Program-made: the position numbers and the translations under genes | The notes under the pieces: model-generated | What the model was told of the DNA's origin: nothing | Database searches by the model: none | Seen by the model: only the letters and a program-made list of their open reading frames with translations | Shown here: positions 2,408 through 7,979 of the stretch, piece after piece | Position numbering within the stretch: the first letter of the stretch is position 1 | Layout: the number at the start of each line of letters is the position of its first letter | Assembly: GCA_037442745.1 (NCBI GenBank) | Contig: JBBIPP010000012.1 | Coordinates: forward strand, 1-36,601 | DNA: 36,601 nucleotides | Direction of reading: 5' to 3' | Source of the DNA: an archaeon | GTDB lineage: Archaea > SpSt-1190 > DYHY01

Positions 2408-2722
2408 ATGGCTGAGGATTCGTTTTCGGAAAAAGTCTATTCCTTGCTGAAGAAGGTTCCTCGTGGAAAAGTCACTACATATTCAGCCCTTGCTCGAGCC
2501 GCCGGAAGGCCCGGAGCCGCAAGGGCTGTCGGAACCCTTATGCGGAAGAACGCCCGTCCGGAAGAGCTTCCCTGCTATCGTGTTGTCCGTTCAGACTGGT
2601 CTGTCGGGGAATATTCCGGCAAGGGAGGCTCTCCGGGAAAGGAGGCGCTGCTGAAAAAAGACGGGCTCCCGATAACTGGCAGGAAGATAAGCTCCCTTGA
2701 GAGTTTCCTTTTCGGATTTTGA
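2408..2722 (+). CDS. MGMT/Ogt-family alkylguanine DNA-binding/alkyltransferase protein (C-terminal domain only)
   Basis: VPRGKVTTYSALA, AARAVG, PCYRVV, YSG motifs; start ATG 2408. Confidence 0.88.
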   Translation: MAEDSFSEKVYSLLKKVPRGKVTTYSALARAAGRPGAARAVGTLMRKNARPEELPCYRVVRSDWSVGEYSGKGGSPGKEALLKKDGLPITGRKISSLESFLFGF

Positions 2723-3026
2723 AAGCGCCATTTATCGAATCTGCCTTCAGTTTTCCCGCAATTACCGCCGGTTTGGCAATCACGAAATATGTGACTGCGC
2801 ATAAGAGAGCGAGGATTCCGGACATTCCGTCAATAACCGCGTTCGGATGCTTCCCTGGGAGAGTTAGGAGAAAGTTGATTGTTTGAGAGTAAATCAGAAA
2901 ATATACTAGGACCGCAAACAAGGTGAACCTCGGAAGAAGCCCCTTGAAAACGTTGTTGAAGTTGGATGCGAACGCTAGTTTCCTGCGGTAACTTACTTCA
3001 GGACGAACAAAATTATCAGGTTACAT
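2538..3026 (-). pseudogene. putative 2-TM membrane protein gene with a stop at codon 2
   Basis: ATG 3026-3024 is followed at once by TAA 3023-3021, then the frame is open to 2538 with two hydrophobic segments; it starts 3 nt after the upstream wHTH stop. Confidence 0.5.
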
Positions 3027-3029
3027 TCC

Positions 3030-3485
3030 TTATTTTTCCCTTTCCTTTGCAAGCGCCTCTATTTCCGCGAGAGTCCGGAGTATTTCCGAGACCATGAGGC
3101 CGTCTATTTTGATGTCAGGCTCGTTCCAAGAATAATATATGTCGTTTCCCTCAATTATCTTGCTTATTAGCGAATGTTCCCCAGACTCTTCAATCAAGTT
3201 GTTCATGAAGCGCCATATATTGCTTCTGTCGTCATCCAGAGCTTGGGAAATCTGGATGTTCGTGAATTTTCTCCCCCTGTTTTTTGCGAGAAACAGAAGA
3301 ATCCTTCTCTGGTAGTTTGGGGTGATTTGCCTTATTGTGTTGACGAACGCCCGGGTTATTTTCTCGGCAAGAGCCCGTTTTTCTTCAGAAGGGGAACTGC
3401 CCGGTTTGTGGGAATTGTCACTTTCAGGAAGAGAATCCTCTCCAGTCCGCTGTCCCCTGTTTTGAACCACTGGATAATTGTACAA
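3030..3485 (-). CDS. winged helix-turn-helix transcriptional regulator
   Basis: QRRILLFLAKNRGRKFTNIQISQALDDDRSNIWRFMNNLIEE...LISKIIEGNDIYYSW, an HTH plus wing pattern. Confidence 0.75.
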   Translation of the reverse strand: MYNYPVVQNRGQRTGEDSLPESDNSHKPGSSPSEEKRALAEKITRAFVNTIRQITPNYQRRILLFLAKNRGRKFTNIQISQALDDDRSNIWRFMNNLIEESGEHSLISKIIEGNDIYYSWNEPDIKIDGLMVSEILRTLAEIEALAKEREK

Positions 3486-3507
3486 TTTTCCAATTTAAAT
3501 CTTTCTT

Positions 3508-3526
3508 GTTGTAAATTTAATACAAC
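3508..3526. promoter_or_regulatory. palindromic operator copy 1, GTTGTA-N7-TACAAC
   Basis: GTTGTA aatttaa TACAAC between a minus-strand TATA-like tataaaa and the wHTH start; two more copies at 4553 and 5402. Confidence 0.7.
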
Positions 3527-3745
3527 CGAAAGGCTTTTATACAAAATATTTGCAAATTACTGCCCGTAATATTCCCCCCTCCCAAGGGAATCCGGCTTTG
3601 TTGCTGAAAGGCAATTCGGCCGGAAGGGGCCTGTCGTCTTTTGGCAGGCCCTCACAAAAAATAACGCAAGAGTTCTATTCCGAAAACCCGAAAACCGCCC
3701 AGACAATTAAAGCTTATAATTGGGTTTGTGGAAAAGTCTTGCCGA

Positions 3746-4531
3746 ATGGTGAATCAACTTCAAGAGCAAGGCAATTCCGCTGGCAAAGGAAAGGAACGCC
3801 TTGAAACAATCAAAATATCCGACGCCCTCAAGCTCGAGCCATCCGAGGAAATTGTGAATGTCAAAGGAGTTGTTTCTTTCGCGGGAGGCCCTGACGAAAA
3901 AGATGGGTGGCTCTCAATCACAGACACTACGGACACAATCTATGCATGGGGCCCGCGGTTCGAGGGGAACGGGACTCTTTCGGGGAAAATAAACGTTTAT
4001 CAGGGGAGAAAATATCTCCAAGTCGAGCGGATAAGGAAACAGAAAAAAGAATCTCTCCTTCTGAAAATTCTCCCATTTGTCTTCCTTGTGGCAATACCCC
4101 TAGTCCTCTATTTCGGTATTTCAATGACATTCCCCGACTTTCACATTGCCGACATTATCGGGCCGAAAGAGCCCTATCCGGGGCTATCGGATCTGAAGAG
4201 AGACAAACTGACCTCATACAAGCTTGAGGCAATCTGGCACGAGGGAAATATTCTCTGCGCGGAGCTCCGAAACACCGGAAAAATGGTAATTCCAAAGGAA
4301 GACTTGGACAGAATAACCTTCTCTGTTGACAATTCCTCAATCTATTGGAACCGCTCAACTCTCCCGGAAAATCTAATGATCTGGAAGAGGTTTCCTCTTT
4401 GCCTCTGCGTTGAAAGCGGGGACGGGTGCCCGGATGGCCAAGTATTCTTCAAGTTCGAAAAAGTCGGCGGGAACTATCCGTCTGTCGAAATAGAAATCCG
4501 CCCCTGGTTCGGGGAAGTGAAGACAGGCTAG
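3746..4531 (+). CDS. membrane protein: N-terminal OB-fold-like domain, single TM, Cys-containing C-terminal domain
   Basis: VNVKGVVS...LSITDTTDTI...SGKINVYQGRKYLQVERI (OB-like); TM ILPFVFLVAIPLVLYFGI; ATG 3746. Confidence 0.7.
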   Translation: MVNQLQEQGNSAGKGKERLETIKISDALKLEPSEEIVNVKGVVSFAGGPDEKDGWLSITDTTDTIYAWGPRFEGNGTLSGKINVYQGRKYLQVERIRKQKKESLLLKILPFVFLVAIPLVLYFGISMTFPDFHIADIIGPKEPYPGLSDLKRDKLTSYKLEAIWHEGNILCAELRNTGKMVIPKEDLDRITFSVDNSSIYWNRSTLPENLMIWKRFPLCLCVESGDGCPDGQVFFKFEKVGGNYPSVEIEIRPWFGEVKTG

Positions 4532-4552
4532 TTTTCTCAAATATGTTAAATA

Positions 4553-4571
4553 GTTGTAGCCTAATTACAAC
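4553..4571. promoter_or_regulatory. palindromic operator copy 2, GTTGTA-N7-TACAAC
   Basis: GTTGTA gcctaat TACAAC directly after TATA-like gttaaata and 5 nt before ATG 4577. Confidence 0.7.
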
Positions 4572-4576
4572 AGCCA

Positions 4577-4915
4577 ATGGAACTCTCCCTCGCCCCGGGG
4601 CTTGTAGTGTCGGTATTTTACCTCCTCATCTATGCAATAGCCCTTCGGACAATAACTCTTCTTGTGTTCAAAAAAGTGACAATTTCCCACACATATGTCA
4701 CAATGACCAAAAAGGACCTTGTGTTCATTCTCCTTTTCTTCGGCCTCTTCTTCAACGGGTTCGTTCTTTTCATTTCTTCCGGAATTCTTCAGGGGCATAA
4801 TGAACTTCCTGTTGTAATAATTATTGACTTTATTCTTCGGATTCTGACAGCATTCTCAATTTTCGGGGCAGCAATTATTGCCAAAAAATCAGAGATTTTC
4901 GAGGAATTCGCATAA
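4577..4915 (+). CDS. hypothetical 3-TM membrane protein (112 aa)
   Basis: three hydrophobic segments; own TATA-like box and operator. Confidence 0.75.
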   Translation: MELSLAPGLVVSVFYLLIYAIALRTITLLVFKKVTISHTYVTMTKKDLVFILLFFGLFFNGFVLFISSGILQGHNELPVVIIIDFILRILTAFSIFGAAIIAKKSEIFEEFA

Positions 4916-5401
4916 ATAACCTTTATCAGATGGTAACGTTTTTTTCCAAAACAATTCATCCCTTCCAAAAAAGCAGGGAAATAACTAGCTACGGGAAATT
5001 GGAAACAATTTACCCGGGAGGAGCTGAAGGGGTTTCTAGACTGGGAACTTTCTCTTCTCCCTACCCCAGAAGGGGCTTTCAAATATGTGCACTGCACACA
5101 AGATTGCCGAATATTCAGCTAGCCATCAGATACCTGTTTTGTTTTTGCAGGAATAGGGTTCGAATCAGAAGGGGACAAACATATCCCTGTAAATAGGCTG
5201 GTAGCTAATTTTGAAACCGCTCTGATTCCAAAGGAAATAACTTGTTTTCTTGCTGATAGTCTGGAATTTGCAATCTTGCCTCTCTTTATGTAGTTGATTT
5301 AGGCAAATACTCAATAGGCATAACGAGTCAACCTCCCTGCCAATTGACCTTTGAAGCAGCTGAACCTTCGTCCCCATTCAGTCACTTTACAGAATAGCAC
5401 T

Positions 5402-5420
5402 GTTGTAAGGTATTTACAAT
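5402..5420. promoter_or_regulatory. palindromic operator copy 3, GTTGTA-N7-TACAAT
   Basis: GTTGTA aggtatt TACAAT with the same 7-bp spacer; adjacent tttaaa TATA-like box. Confidence 0.65.
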
Positions 5421-5453
5421 AACCTCTTTAAACAAAAAGTCGACATATATGTA

Positions 5454-5561
5454 TTGGAGGGGGGTAAAATAGTAGTGACTGGAGCACTGCTAGGAGCAAT
5501 AGTCGCACTTGCAGTTGCTAATGCAATATTGCTTCAGAAGATACTGGTTCTTCTGGAGTGA
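5454..5561 (+). CDS. possible small single-TM peptide (~35 aa) or gene remnant
   Basis: TTG-EGGKIVVTGALLGAIVALAVANAILLQKILVLLE-TGA; below the ORF-track length cutoff. Confidence 0.3.
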   Translation: MEGGKIVVTGALLGAIVALAVANAILLQKILVLLE

Positions 5562-5683
5562 GAACTGACCAACGAACGAACCCTAGGAAGAAAAATGGAC
5601 CAGAACACAACTACAAGACAGTATAATCGCTCTAATAACAACCTTTTTCAATTGGAAAAAACTTTTAATTGTCATTTTTAATT

Positions 5684-6730
5684 TTAAAACCATGAATCAA
5701 GACCCTTTTGTTTTTCCGCTTCATTTATCTCTTTTAAAACTTTATCAAGCGAATTTCGTATTCTTTCTTCTGCGAAATCGTGTCTAGAACACATTATTTC
5801 GACAATTTTGTCGGAATCAATTTTTTTCTTATCCAAATTACTTATAGTGTCATCAATAGCAGGTTTTTCAAATAATGAAGCCAAATTTTTCGGTTCTATT
5901 CCAAATGTCCAGGAACCTTTGAATGTTTCAAACAATTTGTCAAATTCTTTTCCAGTTTTTATTAATTTGAGAGCTTTTTTTGGTCCAATTCCCCTGATTC
6001 CGCCAGGATTATAATCAGTTCCAACAAGAATCCCAAGAATTATTAATTGTTCCCGGCTAATCCCAAGACCTTTCAGAACGCTCTCAAGCTCAATTATTTC
6101 AATTGGGACATCAACATATCTCGAGGTTCCGGGCATTTTCCGCTTGTTAGTTACGCTCAGGTTCCGTACAAGGCTCGGAGCCCCGAAAAGAAGGCAGTCA
6201 TAATCCTGACTTGCAACGAAATCAACAACCCCTTTCCTTGCGAGGAAACTTGCTTGCGCCTCCCCTTCGGTCGGAGCCTGGATAACAGGTATTCCAAGAG
6301 CTTCCAAAAGCTCCTTTGCCTCCTTTATCATTCCCTCATCAAGCCTGCTTGTTCTCTGGGAGAATTTCCTAGCGCTCTCAAAATCCCCCTCTTTCAGAGC
6401 CTCTTCGTATTTTTCCTCCGCTTCCTGCTTTGCCTTTTCCCTTGTTTTCAGGGTTTCGAGTTTCTCCGCCCTTGCTTTCCCATCGAAAACATAGGAAATT
6501 GATATCCCTGCCTCAATTAGCCGGAGGTTCCGGTAGAAAATTCCTGAGAGATGGCTTGTCACTCTCCCTTGGGAGTCCATAAGAGGTGTTCCGTCCTGCT
6601 GTCTTATTGTTGAGAGGAACTGGTAAATTGCGTTGAAAGCATCGACAGAGACCTTCTTTCCTCTGAAAAATCCGGGCTCTACGTTCCTTATTGCCTCTTC
6701 AGGTATTATTTCCCGGAGTTGAATGCCCAT
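5684..6730 (-). CDS. fen: flap endonuclease-1
   Basis: MGI..., VDAFNAIYQFLSTIRQQDGTPLMD, YVFDG, EGEAQA, SQDYD, GTDYNPGGIRGIGPKKAL, C-terminal PIP box QKGLDSWF; start ATG 6730. Confidence 0.97.
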   Translation of the reverse strand: MGIQLREIIPEEAIRNVEPGFFRGKKVSVDAFNAIYQFLSTIRQQDGTPLMDSQGRVTSHLSGIFYRNLRLIEAGISISYVFDGKARAEKLETLKTREKAKQEAEEKYEEALKEGDFESARKFSQRTSRLDEGMIKEAKELLEALGIPVIQAPTEGEAQASFLARKGVVDFVASQDYDCLLFGAPSLVRNLSVTNKRKMPGTSRYVDVPIEIIELESVLKGLGISREQLIILGILVGTDYNPGGIRGIGPKKALKLIKTGKEFDKLFETFKGSWTFGIEPKNLASLFEKPAIDDTISNLDKKKIDSDKIVEIMCSRHDFAEERIRNSLDKVLKEINEAEKQKGLDSWF

Positions 6731-6782
6731 TACCGGAAGGAAAACAACAACCATTTTATATCCTTTCCCGGAGGGGGCTTTC

Positions 6783-6989
6783 GTGGAAAGAAAAGAGCGC
6801 GTTCTCCTAATTGTCCTAGGGGTAATTGTTGCAATCTGGATTGTTGTCGGAGTCTTCAACTTCGGCTATGCATATTGGCCGGCGGTTGCCGGCGCTCTGA
6901 CAATACCCTTCCTTCTAATAGCCCTTTTCGTTGACAACCTTCCTTTCCTTCAAAAGGAAAGCGCGCCAAACAACCAAAAAAAGAACTGA
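6783..6989 (+). CDS. small 2-TM membrane protein
   Basis: GGAGGGGG SD-like sequence before GTG 6783; two hydrophobic segments; ends 3 nt before the next gene. Confidence 0.6.
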   Translation: MERKERVLLIVLGVIVAIWIVVGVFNFGYAYWPAVAGALTIPFLLIALFVDNLPFLQKESAPNNQKKN

Positions 6990-6992
6990 AAA

Positions 6993-7979
6993 ATGGCAAG
7001 AATTTCCGCCATTTCTGGAGGGGGCTTTCTTTTGGAAGACGGGGCGTTTTCCCTTGAACTCGATCCGAAAAGCCCGAGAGGCGATTTTGTGACAACGCAT
7101 GCCCATACGGACCATCTCCCGAGAAAAATTTCTTCGGATTCAAGGGCAATTGCCTCCACTGAAACAATTGACTTTGCCCGGGAACGCTATGGGATTTCCC
7201 TCCCTAACGGGCTCTCCTTGGAAAATGTCTCCCTTTCTGATGCTGGCCATATGGTCGGCTCGAAAATGGTGTCAATAGGAACATCCAAAGGAAAGGTCCT
7301 CTATACAGGGGATTTCTCAACAATTGACAGGTTCTTCCTCAAGGGAGCAAAGCCTGAGAAATGCAATGTCCTGATTGTTGACTCGACCTTCGCCCTTCCA
7401 GAATTCTCCTTTCCAAAAATCGAGGAAATAATAGAGTCTTCCCGGGCTTTCCTCGAATCATCGAAAAGCAAGAGGGCTGTTTTCTACGGCTATTCCTATG
7501 GCAAGGCTCAGGTCCTGACCCGCCTCGCAAAGGAGCTTGGAATTGTTCCGGTTGTCCAGGCAAATGTCTATTCAGCGAACAAAATCTCCGAGAGGCATGG
7601 AGCGGAAATAGGCAACTCCCTTCTCTTCGGGACAAAAGAGGCGGACAAACAGGTCTATTCTGGCGAGCCTTCAATTGTAATAGCCCCATTGACTGCGAAA
7701 AGCACAATATTCTCAAAAAAGCTCGAGTCCCTTGGCTTCCGCTCCGCAGTTTTCACTGGATGGGCGAAATCCCGGGGAAGGTTCCTTTCCGGATATGATT
7801 CCGCAATCCCCCTATCAGACCATGCCGGATTTTCCGAAATACTCTCATTTGTCGAGAAATGCTCCCCTGAAAAAGTTGTTGTTGCGCACGCGAAAAAAGG
7901 CTCGCCAATTGTATCGGCTCTCCAAGTCCTTGGCTTTGAAACCAATTTGGCTGAAAAGGGGTTTTCCCTAGAGTTCTGA
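6993..7979 (+). CDS. MBL-fold beta-CASP nuclease (SNM1/ligase-associated exonuclease-like)
   Basis: THAHTDH, AGHMVGS, LYTGDF, DSTF, GKAQ, TGW and LSDHA motifs. Confidence 0.9.
   Translation: MARISAISGGGFLLEDGAFSLELDPKSPRGDFVTTHAHTDHLPRKISSDSRAIASTETIDFARERYGISLPNGLSLENVSLSDAGHMVGSKMVSIGTSKGKVLYTGDFSTIDRFFLKGAKPEKCNVLIVDSTFALPEFSFPKIEEIIESSRAFLESSKSKRAVFYGYSYGKAQVLTRLAKELGIVPVVQANVYSANKISERHGAEIGNSLLFGTKEADKQVYSGEPSIVIAPLTAKSTIFSKKLESLGFRSAVFTGWAKSRGRFLSGYDSAIPLSDHAGFSEILSFVEKCSPEKVVVAHAKKGSPIVSALQVLGFETNLAEKGFSLEF

Follow-up and report, generated by a model that had tools for sequence, protein, structure and literature searches.

Which protein reads a palindrome that recurs three times beside one small gene, and which promoters does it control? 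This question is raised by positions 3030–5561 of a 36,601-nucleotide (nt) stretch of archaeal DNA (the window; contig C12, 1–36601), where the inverted repeat GTTGTA-N7-TACAAC accompanies a gene for a winged helix-turn-helix (wHTH) protein and genes for small membrane proteins. The genome of the window (G000) consists of 1,136,343 bases in 20 contigs and belongs to an uncultivated small-genome archaeon. To our knowledge, the regulatory circuits of such organisms are almost unknown, and we know of no genetics or expression data for them. The locus contains a genuine, conserved regulator–operator set whose mechanism is, in kind, that of an ordinary archaeal transcription-factor circuit: the wHTH protein, of 146 amino acids (aa), probably recognises the palindrome as a homodimer and controls four promoters through three operators. 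Comparisons were made with related genomes (G001–G004) and with the metagenome contigs L013 and L014 (1,140 bases), whose regulators are 87 and 60% identical to that of the window, respectively.

Three palindromes at one locus

Operator 1 (3508–3526; GTTGTAAATTTAATACAAC) lies between two divergent promoters, and operator 2 (4553–4571; GTTGTAGCCTAATTACAAC) separates the TATA box of a leaderless gene for a 112-aa membrane protein from its start; both have the form GTTGTA-N7-TACAAC. Operator 3 (5402–5420; GTTGTAAGGTATTTACAAT) ends in the variant arm TACAAT and is located 6 nt 5' of a CTTTAAAC box. None of the three is assigned to a strand. Their half-site centres are 13 bp apart, and the spacers (AATTTAA, GCCTAAT and AGGTATT, respectively) have the length of 7 nt in common. 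The first-pass annotation of this DNA had placed all three palindromes correctly, including the last base T of the third; the 'identical' spacer that it described is identical in length, but not in sequence.

A test confined to the window was weak: three matches at ≤2 mismatches were found against 0.33 expected, and 1 of 100 shuffled sequences also gave three. The test over the whole genome (20 contigs) was decisive: the 12-base palindrome has two exact copies, both at the locus and against ~0.07 expected by chance (arithmetic from base composition), three one-mismatch copies (5402 at the locus, C6:913 and C9:47843) and 12 two-mismatch copies. The 10-base core TTGTA-N7-TACAA occurs three times in the genome, always within the 1.9-kb stretch 3509–5419, and each of thirteen other spacer lengths (0–13) gave 0–2 copies (6 in total). 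The genome-wide scan proposed in the first-pass annotation thus finds the motif concentrated at the locus; given this rarity, it is not a motif scattered over the genome, a distribution that would speak against a regulon. A literature search with both half-site words plus 'archaea' returned, among the matches listed, only unrelated papers, mostly of the primer type, which is no proof that the motif is unpublished.

A spacerless version, AATTGTACAATT (3476–3487), had been read as covering the wHTH start codon. It does overlap TTG 3485, which is probably not the start (see below). As an additional operator it was rejected, because L013, the closest relative, is alone in retaining it (it is absent from G001, L014 and G003), and because its 8-mer TTGTACAA occurs five times in the genome.

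The winged-helix regulator

The regulator gene is encoded on the minus strand (3030–3470) and specifies 146 aa from GTG 3470, as does the database protein P0001, with the same length and start. A 151-aa reading from TTG 3485 is less likely; the minus-strand TTTAAA box starting at 3499 stands at −29 from GTG 3470 but at −14 from TTG 3485, and the TATA peak of the genome fits the GTG. No Pfam family was found for the protein at E ≤1 and no NCBIfam family, and its best sequence match in PDB had an E-value of 0.42. The MarR models (PF01047 and PF12802) did not match even at E ≤1, no HTH_5 or HTH_20 match to the ArsR/SmtB family (PF01022) and no TrmB Pfam match was obtained, and the RAM (AsnC_trans_reg) domain, present in a contrast protein encoded on contig C9, is absent from the regulator.

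The AlphaFold2 (AF2) model, based on six sequences, has a predicted local distance difference test (pLDDT) score of 78 and comprises helices at residues 27–49, 52–63, 71–78 and 82–99, a wing at 102–115 and a last helix at 127–145, whereas residues 1–25 are disordered. The best Foldseek matches in PDB were ArsR/SmtB proteins (SqrR, E 2.5e-4; SmtB) and MarR proteins (MepR, E 4.9e-4; ZitR and SlyA), with the top matches ranging from E 2.5e-4 to 5e-4. All sequences of the regulator alignment have the motif DRSNIW where the third helix starts, and no conserved Cys or His was found among the 33 invariant columns of this alignment (A1). On either side of the winged-helix core, an N- and a C-terminal helix make up the predicted dimer interface (residues 38–58, 88–101 and 118–130), an arrangement like that of MarR proteins. 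The homodimer prediction scored 0.46, compared with 0.00 for the best of three controls, and passed a mark that 20 of 30 proteins with solved structures of two identical chains attain, as against 1 of 23 with a single-chain structure; the dimer runs agreed in at least 10% of contacts, with a partner pLDDT of at least 76. Dimers of wHTH proteins are common among solved structures, so this pass may reflect likeness to them. As modelled, the regulator is a genuine winged-helix protein whose fold resembles those of ArsR and MarR, and it represents an uncatalogued, very narrow family.

Strong homologues are present only in the three other genomes of this archaeal family (3/3); at E ≤0.01, with G000 and weak matches counted, homologues were found in 7 of 61 genomes. 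In larger collections the protein family amounts to 4 clusters among 5.8 billion and to 7 representatives at E ≤0.001 (6 at E ≤1e-30) among 1.84 billion. The ESM-Atlas neighbours of the regulator, and those of its membrane partner described below, are clusters without names; for the regulator, a cluster of EarA, the euryarchaeal archaellum regulator, appears at rank 23 (score 0.82). The EarA model PF07381 had no match in G000 at E ≤0.001 and none in the regulator at E ≤1, and hhalign of A1 against four EarA domains gave a probability of 10% and an E-value of 0.0031 over 70 columns. Separately, six stretches of a 1,102-aa repeat protein (P0010) match regulator profile positions 60–94, i.e. the recognition helix region, with an E-value of 2e-6.

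Promoter architecture around the operators

Promoter elements were calibrated on the genome itself. Upstream of 415 long open reading frames (ORFs) of G000, most TATA-like hexamers begin between −34 and −28 relative to the ATG, with a peak at −31/−30, indicating that most genes are leaderless; a minority show a Shine-Dalgarno signal at −20 to −13. When 120 promoters were aligned on the hexamer, positions −8 to −4 were 63–72% purine and A-rich, corresponding to the transcription factor B (TFB) recognition element (BRE). Four local promoters agree with both the TATA-position and the BRE calibrations.

Operator 1 is flush between two divergent BRE/TATA pairs, with gaps of 0–1 nt, its centre being 47 and 49 nt from the predicted starts. 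The pair on the minus strand is that of the regulator gene (BRE AAGAA, 3503–3507; TATA box, 3494–3500), with its orientation taken from the promoter profile of the genome. The rightward promoter on the plus strand (BRE GAAAG, 3528–3532; TTTTATA, 3535–3541, including TTTATA from 3536) is defined by invariant columns in five loci and by the BRE profile, and its transcription start is predicted near 3566. A reversed orientation of both boxes was rejected, since the BREs would then be TTTTC and ATATT, off the profile. Operator 2 follows the TATA box TTAAAT (plus strand; 4546–4551, −31 from ATG 4577) and covers −24 to −6 of the 112-aa protein gene. Operator 3 ends at 5420 and overlaps by 2 nt the BRE window of a plus-strand promoter region comprising TTTAAA (5427–5432), a second AT box (5445–5450) and the Shine-Dalgarno sequence GGAGGGGGG (5456–5464) of a small ORF. 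Operators 1 and 3 are both centred ~46–49 nt upstream of predicted starts. All three sites had been described as lying just downstream of a TATA-like box; this applies to operator 2, whereas operators 1 and 3 are located directly upstream of BRE/TATA.

The sequence that follows the rightward TATA box (window 3542–3565; compare L010 ~7663–7690, minus strand, and L021 ~1480–1500) has two further features in relatives. In G001, the 15 bases right after the box recur immediately 5' of the start of an Lrp/AsnC orthologue, and L013 carries a CCAATATTGG palindrome at the corresponding place. This repeat or palindrome may be a second operator between TATA box and start.

Conservation of the operators in relatives

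The operator at the regulator's own promoter is conserved together with the regulator gene: operator 1 adjoins it, within ~110 nt, in five of five loci in which the regulator is at least 54% identical (window, L013, G001, L014 and G003). In the five-way alignment of this region, GTTGTA, TACAAC, the AAA of the BRE and TTTTATA are invariant, compared with a mean column identity of 61%. G003 carries two copies of operator 1; the second has the variant GTTGTC and follows the TATA box of the rightward promoter, ahead of the start. The far-side gene in L014 is an N-terminal fragment of pyruvate-phosphate dikinase (Pfam PPDK_N) and not the gene for an oligonucleotide/oligosaccharide-binding (OB)-fold protein found in the window; because L014 keeps operator 1 beside this different neighbour, the site travels with the regulator and not with the OB-fold gene. 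Operator 3 recurs at the corresponding position in L013, G001 and G003, where CTTTAAAC or CTTTAAGC always follows as a box after 5–6 nt. In no fewer than 12 copies, taken from four genomes, the arms match to the letter, without compensatory change, and the loop varies freely. The synteny comparison suggested in the first-pass annotation accordingly shows gene order and operators 1 and 3 to be retained in relatives.

Genome-wide counts at ≤1 mismatch were compared with those of a reversed-pattern control. G001 contains three sites (control, 0), two of which are at the locus, and G003 contains nine (control, 1), four of them exact and three at the locus. There is no enrichment in G002 (two sites; control, two), and G004 (same order), in which no regulator homologue was found, has none (control, 1).

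Sites outside the locus

The one-mismatch site at C6:913 (GTTGTCAAAAAAATACAAC; region C6:857–931) is located 56 nt 5' of a pilin-like gene, i.e. one with an N-terminus resembling a class III signal peptide. In G003, an exact site precedes a gene with the same class-III-signal-like N-terminus (Pfam Class_IIIsignal, E 0.018, below the cut-off). This pilin-like gene of G003 is present in tandem copies (L030 951–1519). In all, six further sites of G003 lie outside the locus. Besides the pilin-like gene, a MEDS-domain gene and a DUF5752 gene are preceded by G003 sites. The locus had been called a local regulon, which is borne out by the exact and core copies, all of which are at the locus, but not by the one-mismatch sites at C6:913 and C9:47843 and the six further sites in G003. 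The regulon is small, not strictly local and differs between genera.

Proposed mechanism and alternative readings

The palindromes are locus-specific, conserved and next to a real winged-helix gene, as expected if they are operators around that gene. In the proposed mechanism, the homodimer of the 146-aa protein would bind GTTGTA-N7-TACAAC. Operator 1 would serve both the regulator's own promoter and the divergent promoter of a C-rich structured RNA or leader, operator 3 the promoter of a 28-aa membrane peptide, and operator 2, in the window genome and L013 only, the promoter of the 112-aa membrane protein gene. At operator 2, between TATA box and start, the bound protein would block polymerase recruitment and thus repress; operators 1 and 3, flush against the BRE, are in the usual position of activator sites, and BRE occlusion, i.e. 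repression, is also possible there. According to PMC4158304 and PMC5512572, archaeal activator sites are usually located just upstream of BRE/TATA and repressor sites over or downstream of the promoter, for which reason a regulator with two modes is proposed. The position between TATA box and start is described as the classical place where archaeal repressors block polymerase recruitment (PMC4158304). By the same geometry, the earlier suggestion that the wHTH protein represses its own gene is not supported, as operator 1 is immediately upstream of the regulator BRE, the usual activator place, and only operator 2 is in the classical repressor position (PMC4158304 and PMC5512572).

Several observations weigh against this reading. 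The sign of regulation is one that we infer purely from site position. Operator 2 is found only in the window genome and its closest relative, L013; it has been lost in G001 although the TATA box of the 112-aa protein gene remains, and there is none in G003. In G002, whose regulator is 41% identical and retains DRSNIW, no N7 site was found in 13 kb at ≤2 mismatches, so that either specificity resides outside DRSNIW or the sites have been lost there. Finally, there is a second candidate binder: an Lrp/AsnC gene on contig C9 (C9:47390–47839) has a one-mismatch site, GTTGTCAAAAATATACAAC (C9:47843), between its own TATA box and ATG.

The strongest alternative shares the binder and differs in the sign. 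The wHTH protein might bind the sites but repress all four promoters, with negative autoregulation, TFB being blocked at the BRE and no activation taking place; as a description of the whole system this is possible, if rather doubtful, and for operators 1 and 3 taken by themselves repression by BRE occlusion is about as likely as activation. The operators do touch the BRE (the gap of 0–1 nt at operator 1 and the 2-nt overlap at operator 3), and at the rightward promoter of G003 the second site comes after the TATA box but before the start. MarR and ArsR family members are mostly repressors, a general point that applies here through likeness of fold only. Sites directly upstream of the BRE, by comparison, go with the activators TrmBL1/Tgr, Ptr2, TFB-RF1 and EarA, as named in PMC4158304 and PMC5512572.

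Another regulator could own the palindromes, the best candidate being the C9 Lrp/AsnC protein, with the wHTH gene as one of its targets. We regard this as decidedly unlikely. The C9 protein has the Pfam domains HTH_24 and AsnC_trans_reg, and some archaeal Lrp-like proteins bind palindromes of the TTGYA...TRCAA type. Its site, GTTGTC-N7-TACAAC, is in a typical autoregulatory place, and the GTTGTC variant is also that of the second site at the G003 wHTH locus. However, upstream of the Lrp orthologues only a two-mismatch match with an 8-nt spacer was found in G001 and none in G003, and the motif accompanies the wHTH gene in five of five loci even where the neighbours change. The C9 gene may itself be controlled by the wHTH protein, or it may encode a second regulator whose operator is nearly the same.

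That the repeats are RNA or DNA hairpins (terminators, or processing or recombination sites) and not protein operators is very improbable: although operator 2 starts 22 nt past the stop codon of the 267-aa OB-fold gene and the repeat could formally fold into a 6-bp stem closed by a 7-nt loop, invariant arms with free loops and no compensatory change are a protein-recognition pattern, no T-run follows the sites, their positions follow the BRE/TATA elements, and the conserved synteny is of a chromosomal kind, the flanking ORFs having yielded no mobile-element genes.

Relation to known regulators

The proposed wHTH regulator can be compared with four groups of known systems. With MarR and ArsR/SmtB proteins (MepR, 3eco; SqrR, 6o8k; SmtB, 1smt) it shares the fold as judged by Foldseek, a predicted symmetric dimer formed through N- and C-terminal helices, a palindromic target and an operator-adjacent gene; unlike them, it has no family-level sequence match and no ArsR-type metal/thiol site, and it operates in an archaeal BRE/TATA context. 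Archaeal Lrp/AsnC regulators resemble it in the TTGTA/TACAA half-sites of the Lrp consensus and in a predicted autoregulated gene, whereas it lacks the RAM/AsnC ligand domain and its spacer is 7 nt long. TrmBL1/Tgr of the Thermococcales, which recognises the TGM sequence TATCAC-N5-GTGATA, likewise has an inverted repeat at several promoters, some upstream of BRE/TATA and some downstream, the upstream sites leading to activation and the downstream sites to repression (PMC4158304). The present regulator belongs to another family without a sugar-binding domain, and differs in motif, spacing and its tiny, non-metabolic regulon. EarA (PF07381) is also a small wHTH protein with sites immediately upstream of the BRE (PMC5512572; for the present protein by geometry only). 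In both proteins the recognition helix opens with D-x-SN-[IV], and sites before pilin-like genes are found in G000 and G003. The EarA sites described in PMC5512572 consist of four 6-bp boxes, unlike the spaced palindrome.

Three features are new here: a C-rich structured element and a 28-aa membrane ORF, both conserved, and a membrane partner gene that is truncated in the window genome. In kind, the system is an ordinary one, with an autoregulated transcription factor and a small regulon. The 146-aa regulator of an uncatalogued winged-helix family and its 19-bp operator, essentially unique in the genome, make up a testable pair whose promoter elements can be calibrated from the genome sequence. 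With them, it could be asked cleanly in vitro whether a single archaeal factor acts as an activator at a BRE-proximal site and as a repressor from downstream of the TATA box. The candidate targets (the 28-aa membrane peptide, the small membrane protein, possibly the pilin-like genes and the C-rich RNA) point to cell-envelope functions.

C-rich element downstream of operator 1

The rightward promoter of operator 1 is predicted to give rise to a non-coding transcript or leader (3566–3661, plus strand) that contains a C-rich motif and hairpins. The motif, TTCCCCCCTCCCAAGGGAA (3572–3590, plus strand), is identical in the window, L013, G001 and L014; in G003 a rearranged, similar C-run takes its place. 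It is followed by an insert hairpin (3591–3624, plus strand), which corresponds to an insert of 34 nt in the window and L013 only, and by a GC hairpin (3626–3652, plus strand). A hairpin after the motif is present in five of five loci, with stems that differ yet pair (GGGCCUG/CAGGCCC, GGGCCUGUC/GACAGGCCC, GGUCCGUGG/CCACGGACC and GGUCC/GGACC); the comparison involves five sequences only, and the MAFFT alignment put two stem groups one column out of register. The fold z-scores of the five loci were −3.6, −4.4, −2.7, −2.3 and −1.4. Folding energies gave a mixed answer on the strand, the sense strand being better in the window (−44.9 versus −36.2) and in L013, the two strands being about equal in G001 and L014, and the antisense strand being better in G003 (−9.7 versus −24.3).

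The motif is unique in G000. A search of 17 genomes of the class at ≤2 mismatches matched it in three, namely G000, G001 and, as one two-mismatch match, G006; the last is probably a chance match, with no obvious hairpin beside it by eye. Rfam gave nothing in this region at gathering thresholds, and at E ≤5 only chance-level matches well below the cut-offs in 3400–5700. A small-protein reading of 3550–3804 was rejected, because the window and L013 carry an insertion of 32 nt that G001 lacks, which disrupts any common frame. The element is retained in L014 although the gene downstream is another one there, and so it is part of the regulator unit. It would be either a separate small RNA or a leader, between which the sequence by itself does not distinguish.

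A more elaborate, and fairly unlikely, arrangement would be a feed-forward circuit of transcription factor, small RNA and small protein. In this scheme, the rightward promoter of operator 1 would produce a discrete C-rich small RNA of ~90–100 nt (3566–3661), whose exposed CCCCCCUCC would pair with the Shine-Dalgarno sequence GGAGGGGGG of the 28-aa membrane-peptide mRNA, driven by the same type of operator 1.9 kb away. The complementarity of the C-run to this unusually G-rich Shine-Dalgarno sequence extends over 9 nt in the window, 10 nt in L013, 11 nt in G001 and ~6 nt in G003. The match is suggestive at most, as GGAGGGGGG occurs 16 times in G000, counting both strands; the 16S 3' end carries an ordinary CCUCC. 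Around one such word, 130 bases are identical between two contigs of G000 (C1 ~3216–3345 and C6 ~77136–77265), which represents a repeated element or a duplicated contig end.

Membrane protein genes and the decayed partner of the regulator

The 112-aa membrane protein (4577–4915, plus strand; three transmembrane (TM) segments by the count of the first-pass annotation) matched no known family in Pfam or NCBIfam and has orthologues in G001 (59% identity) and G003 (40%). Control of this gene and of a transcript starting near 5400 had been proposed. Both promoters, the latter with a start after 5420, indeed carry sites, although for the former this is limited to the two genomes with operator 2.

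The small ORF behind operator 3 (5475–5561, plus strand) encodes 28 aa and is hydrophobic (VTGALLGAIVALAVANAILLQKILVLLE). It is conserved in G001 (E 3e-8) and G003 (E 0.008), and 17 of 29 differences from G001 and 21 of 37 from G003 fall on third codon positions. Judged by this conservation, the ORF is a real gene. G003 has a paralogue of it without an upstream operator.

The 267-aa protein encoded between operators 1 and 2 (3746–4531, plus strand) is predicted to consist of an OB fold, a single TM segment and a Cys-rich C-terminal domain, and its gene is conserved in L013, G001 and G003. In the AF2 model, an N-terminal beta-barrel (residues 36–98) has a pLDDT of ~80, whereas the remainder is poor (overall pLDDT, 54); Foldseek retrieved the OB folds of RPA, Stn1 and YgiW (best E-value, 4.5e-4). 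The OB fold assigned earlier is thereby supported, but the suggested control by the regulator is not: the gene has its own promoter (plus strand; TTATAA, 3714–3719, −32 from ATG 3746), with no operator.

On the other side of the regulator gene, a remnant of its operon partner is present (2538–3020, minus strand), matching residues 120–206 of an L013 protein with 76% identity over 87 aa. The usual stop codon of the remnant has been lost, and the frame continues into a methylguanine-methyltransferase (MGMT)-like gene. In relatives, a polytopic membrane protein of ~210 aa and no known family follows the regulator within 3 nt or overlapping it; it is present in L013, G001, G002, L014 (a fragment) and G003 (two copies, one apparently split). 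Sequence comparison thus indicates that the conserved unit is regulator plus membrane protein and that the window genome holds a decayed copy of the partner, a truncation that could be a real deletion or an assembly artefact. The locus had been regarded as a membrane-associated sensing or stress module, which the results do not support. No sensor domain and no conserved Cys or His was found in the regulator, and a membrane link is plausible through its predicted co-transcription with the partner in relatives.

Genomic setting

The locus is embedded in housekeeping genes: an ORF resembling a polyprenyl synthase of the geranylgeranyl diphosphate type (named from sequence only), a gene with an MGMT DNA-binding domain (Pfam) and FEN1/XPG (5684–6859; Pfam). 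The order synthase, MGMT-like gene, regulator, OB-fold gene, 112-aa protein gene and then FEN1 is shared with G001 (inverted) and G003. A mobile-element setting was rejected because this chromosomal order is kept in both genomes. Between the 112-aa protein gene and operator 3 (4916–5400), the window contains ~349 additional non-coding bases, the distance from operator 2 to operator 3 being 849 nt compared with 500 nt in L013; neither a conserved ORF nor an Rfam match was found in the extra DNA. At the corresponding place, G001 holds ~2.4 kb.

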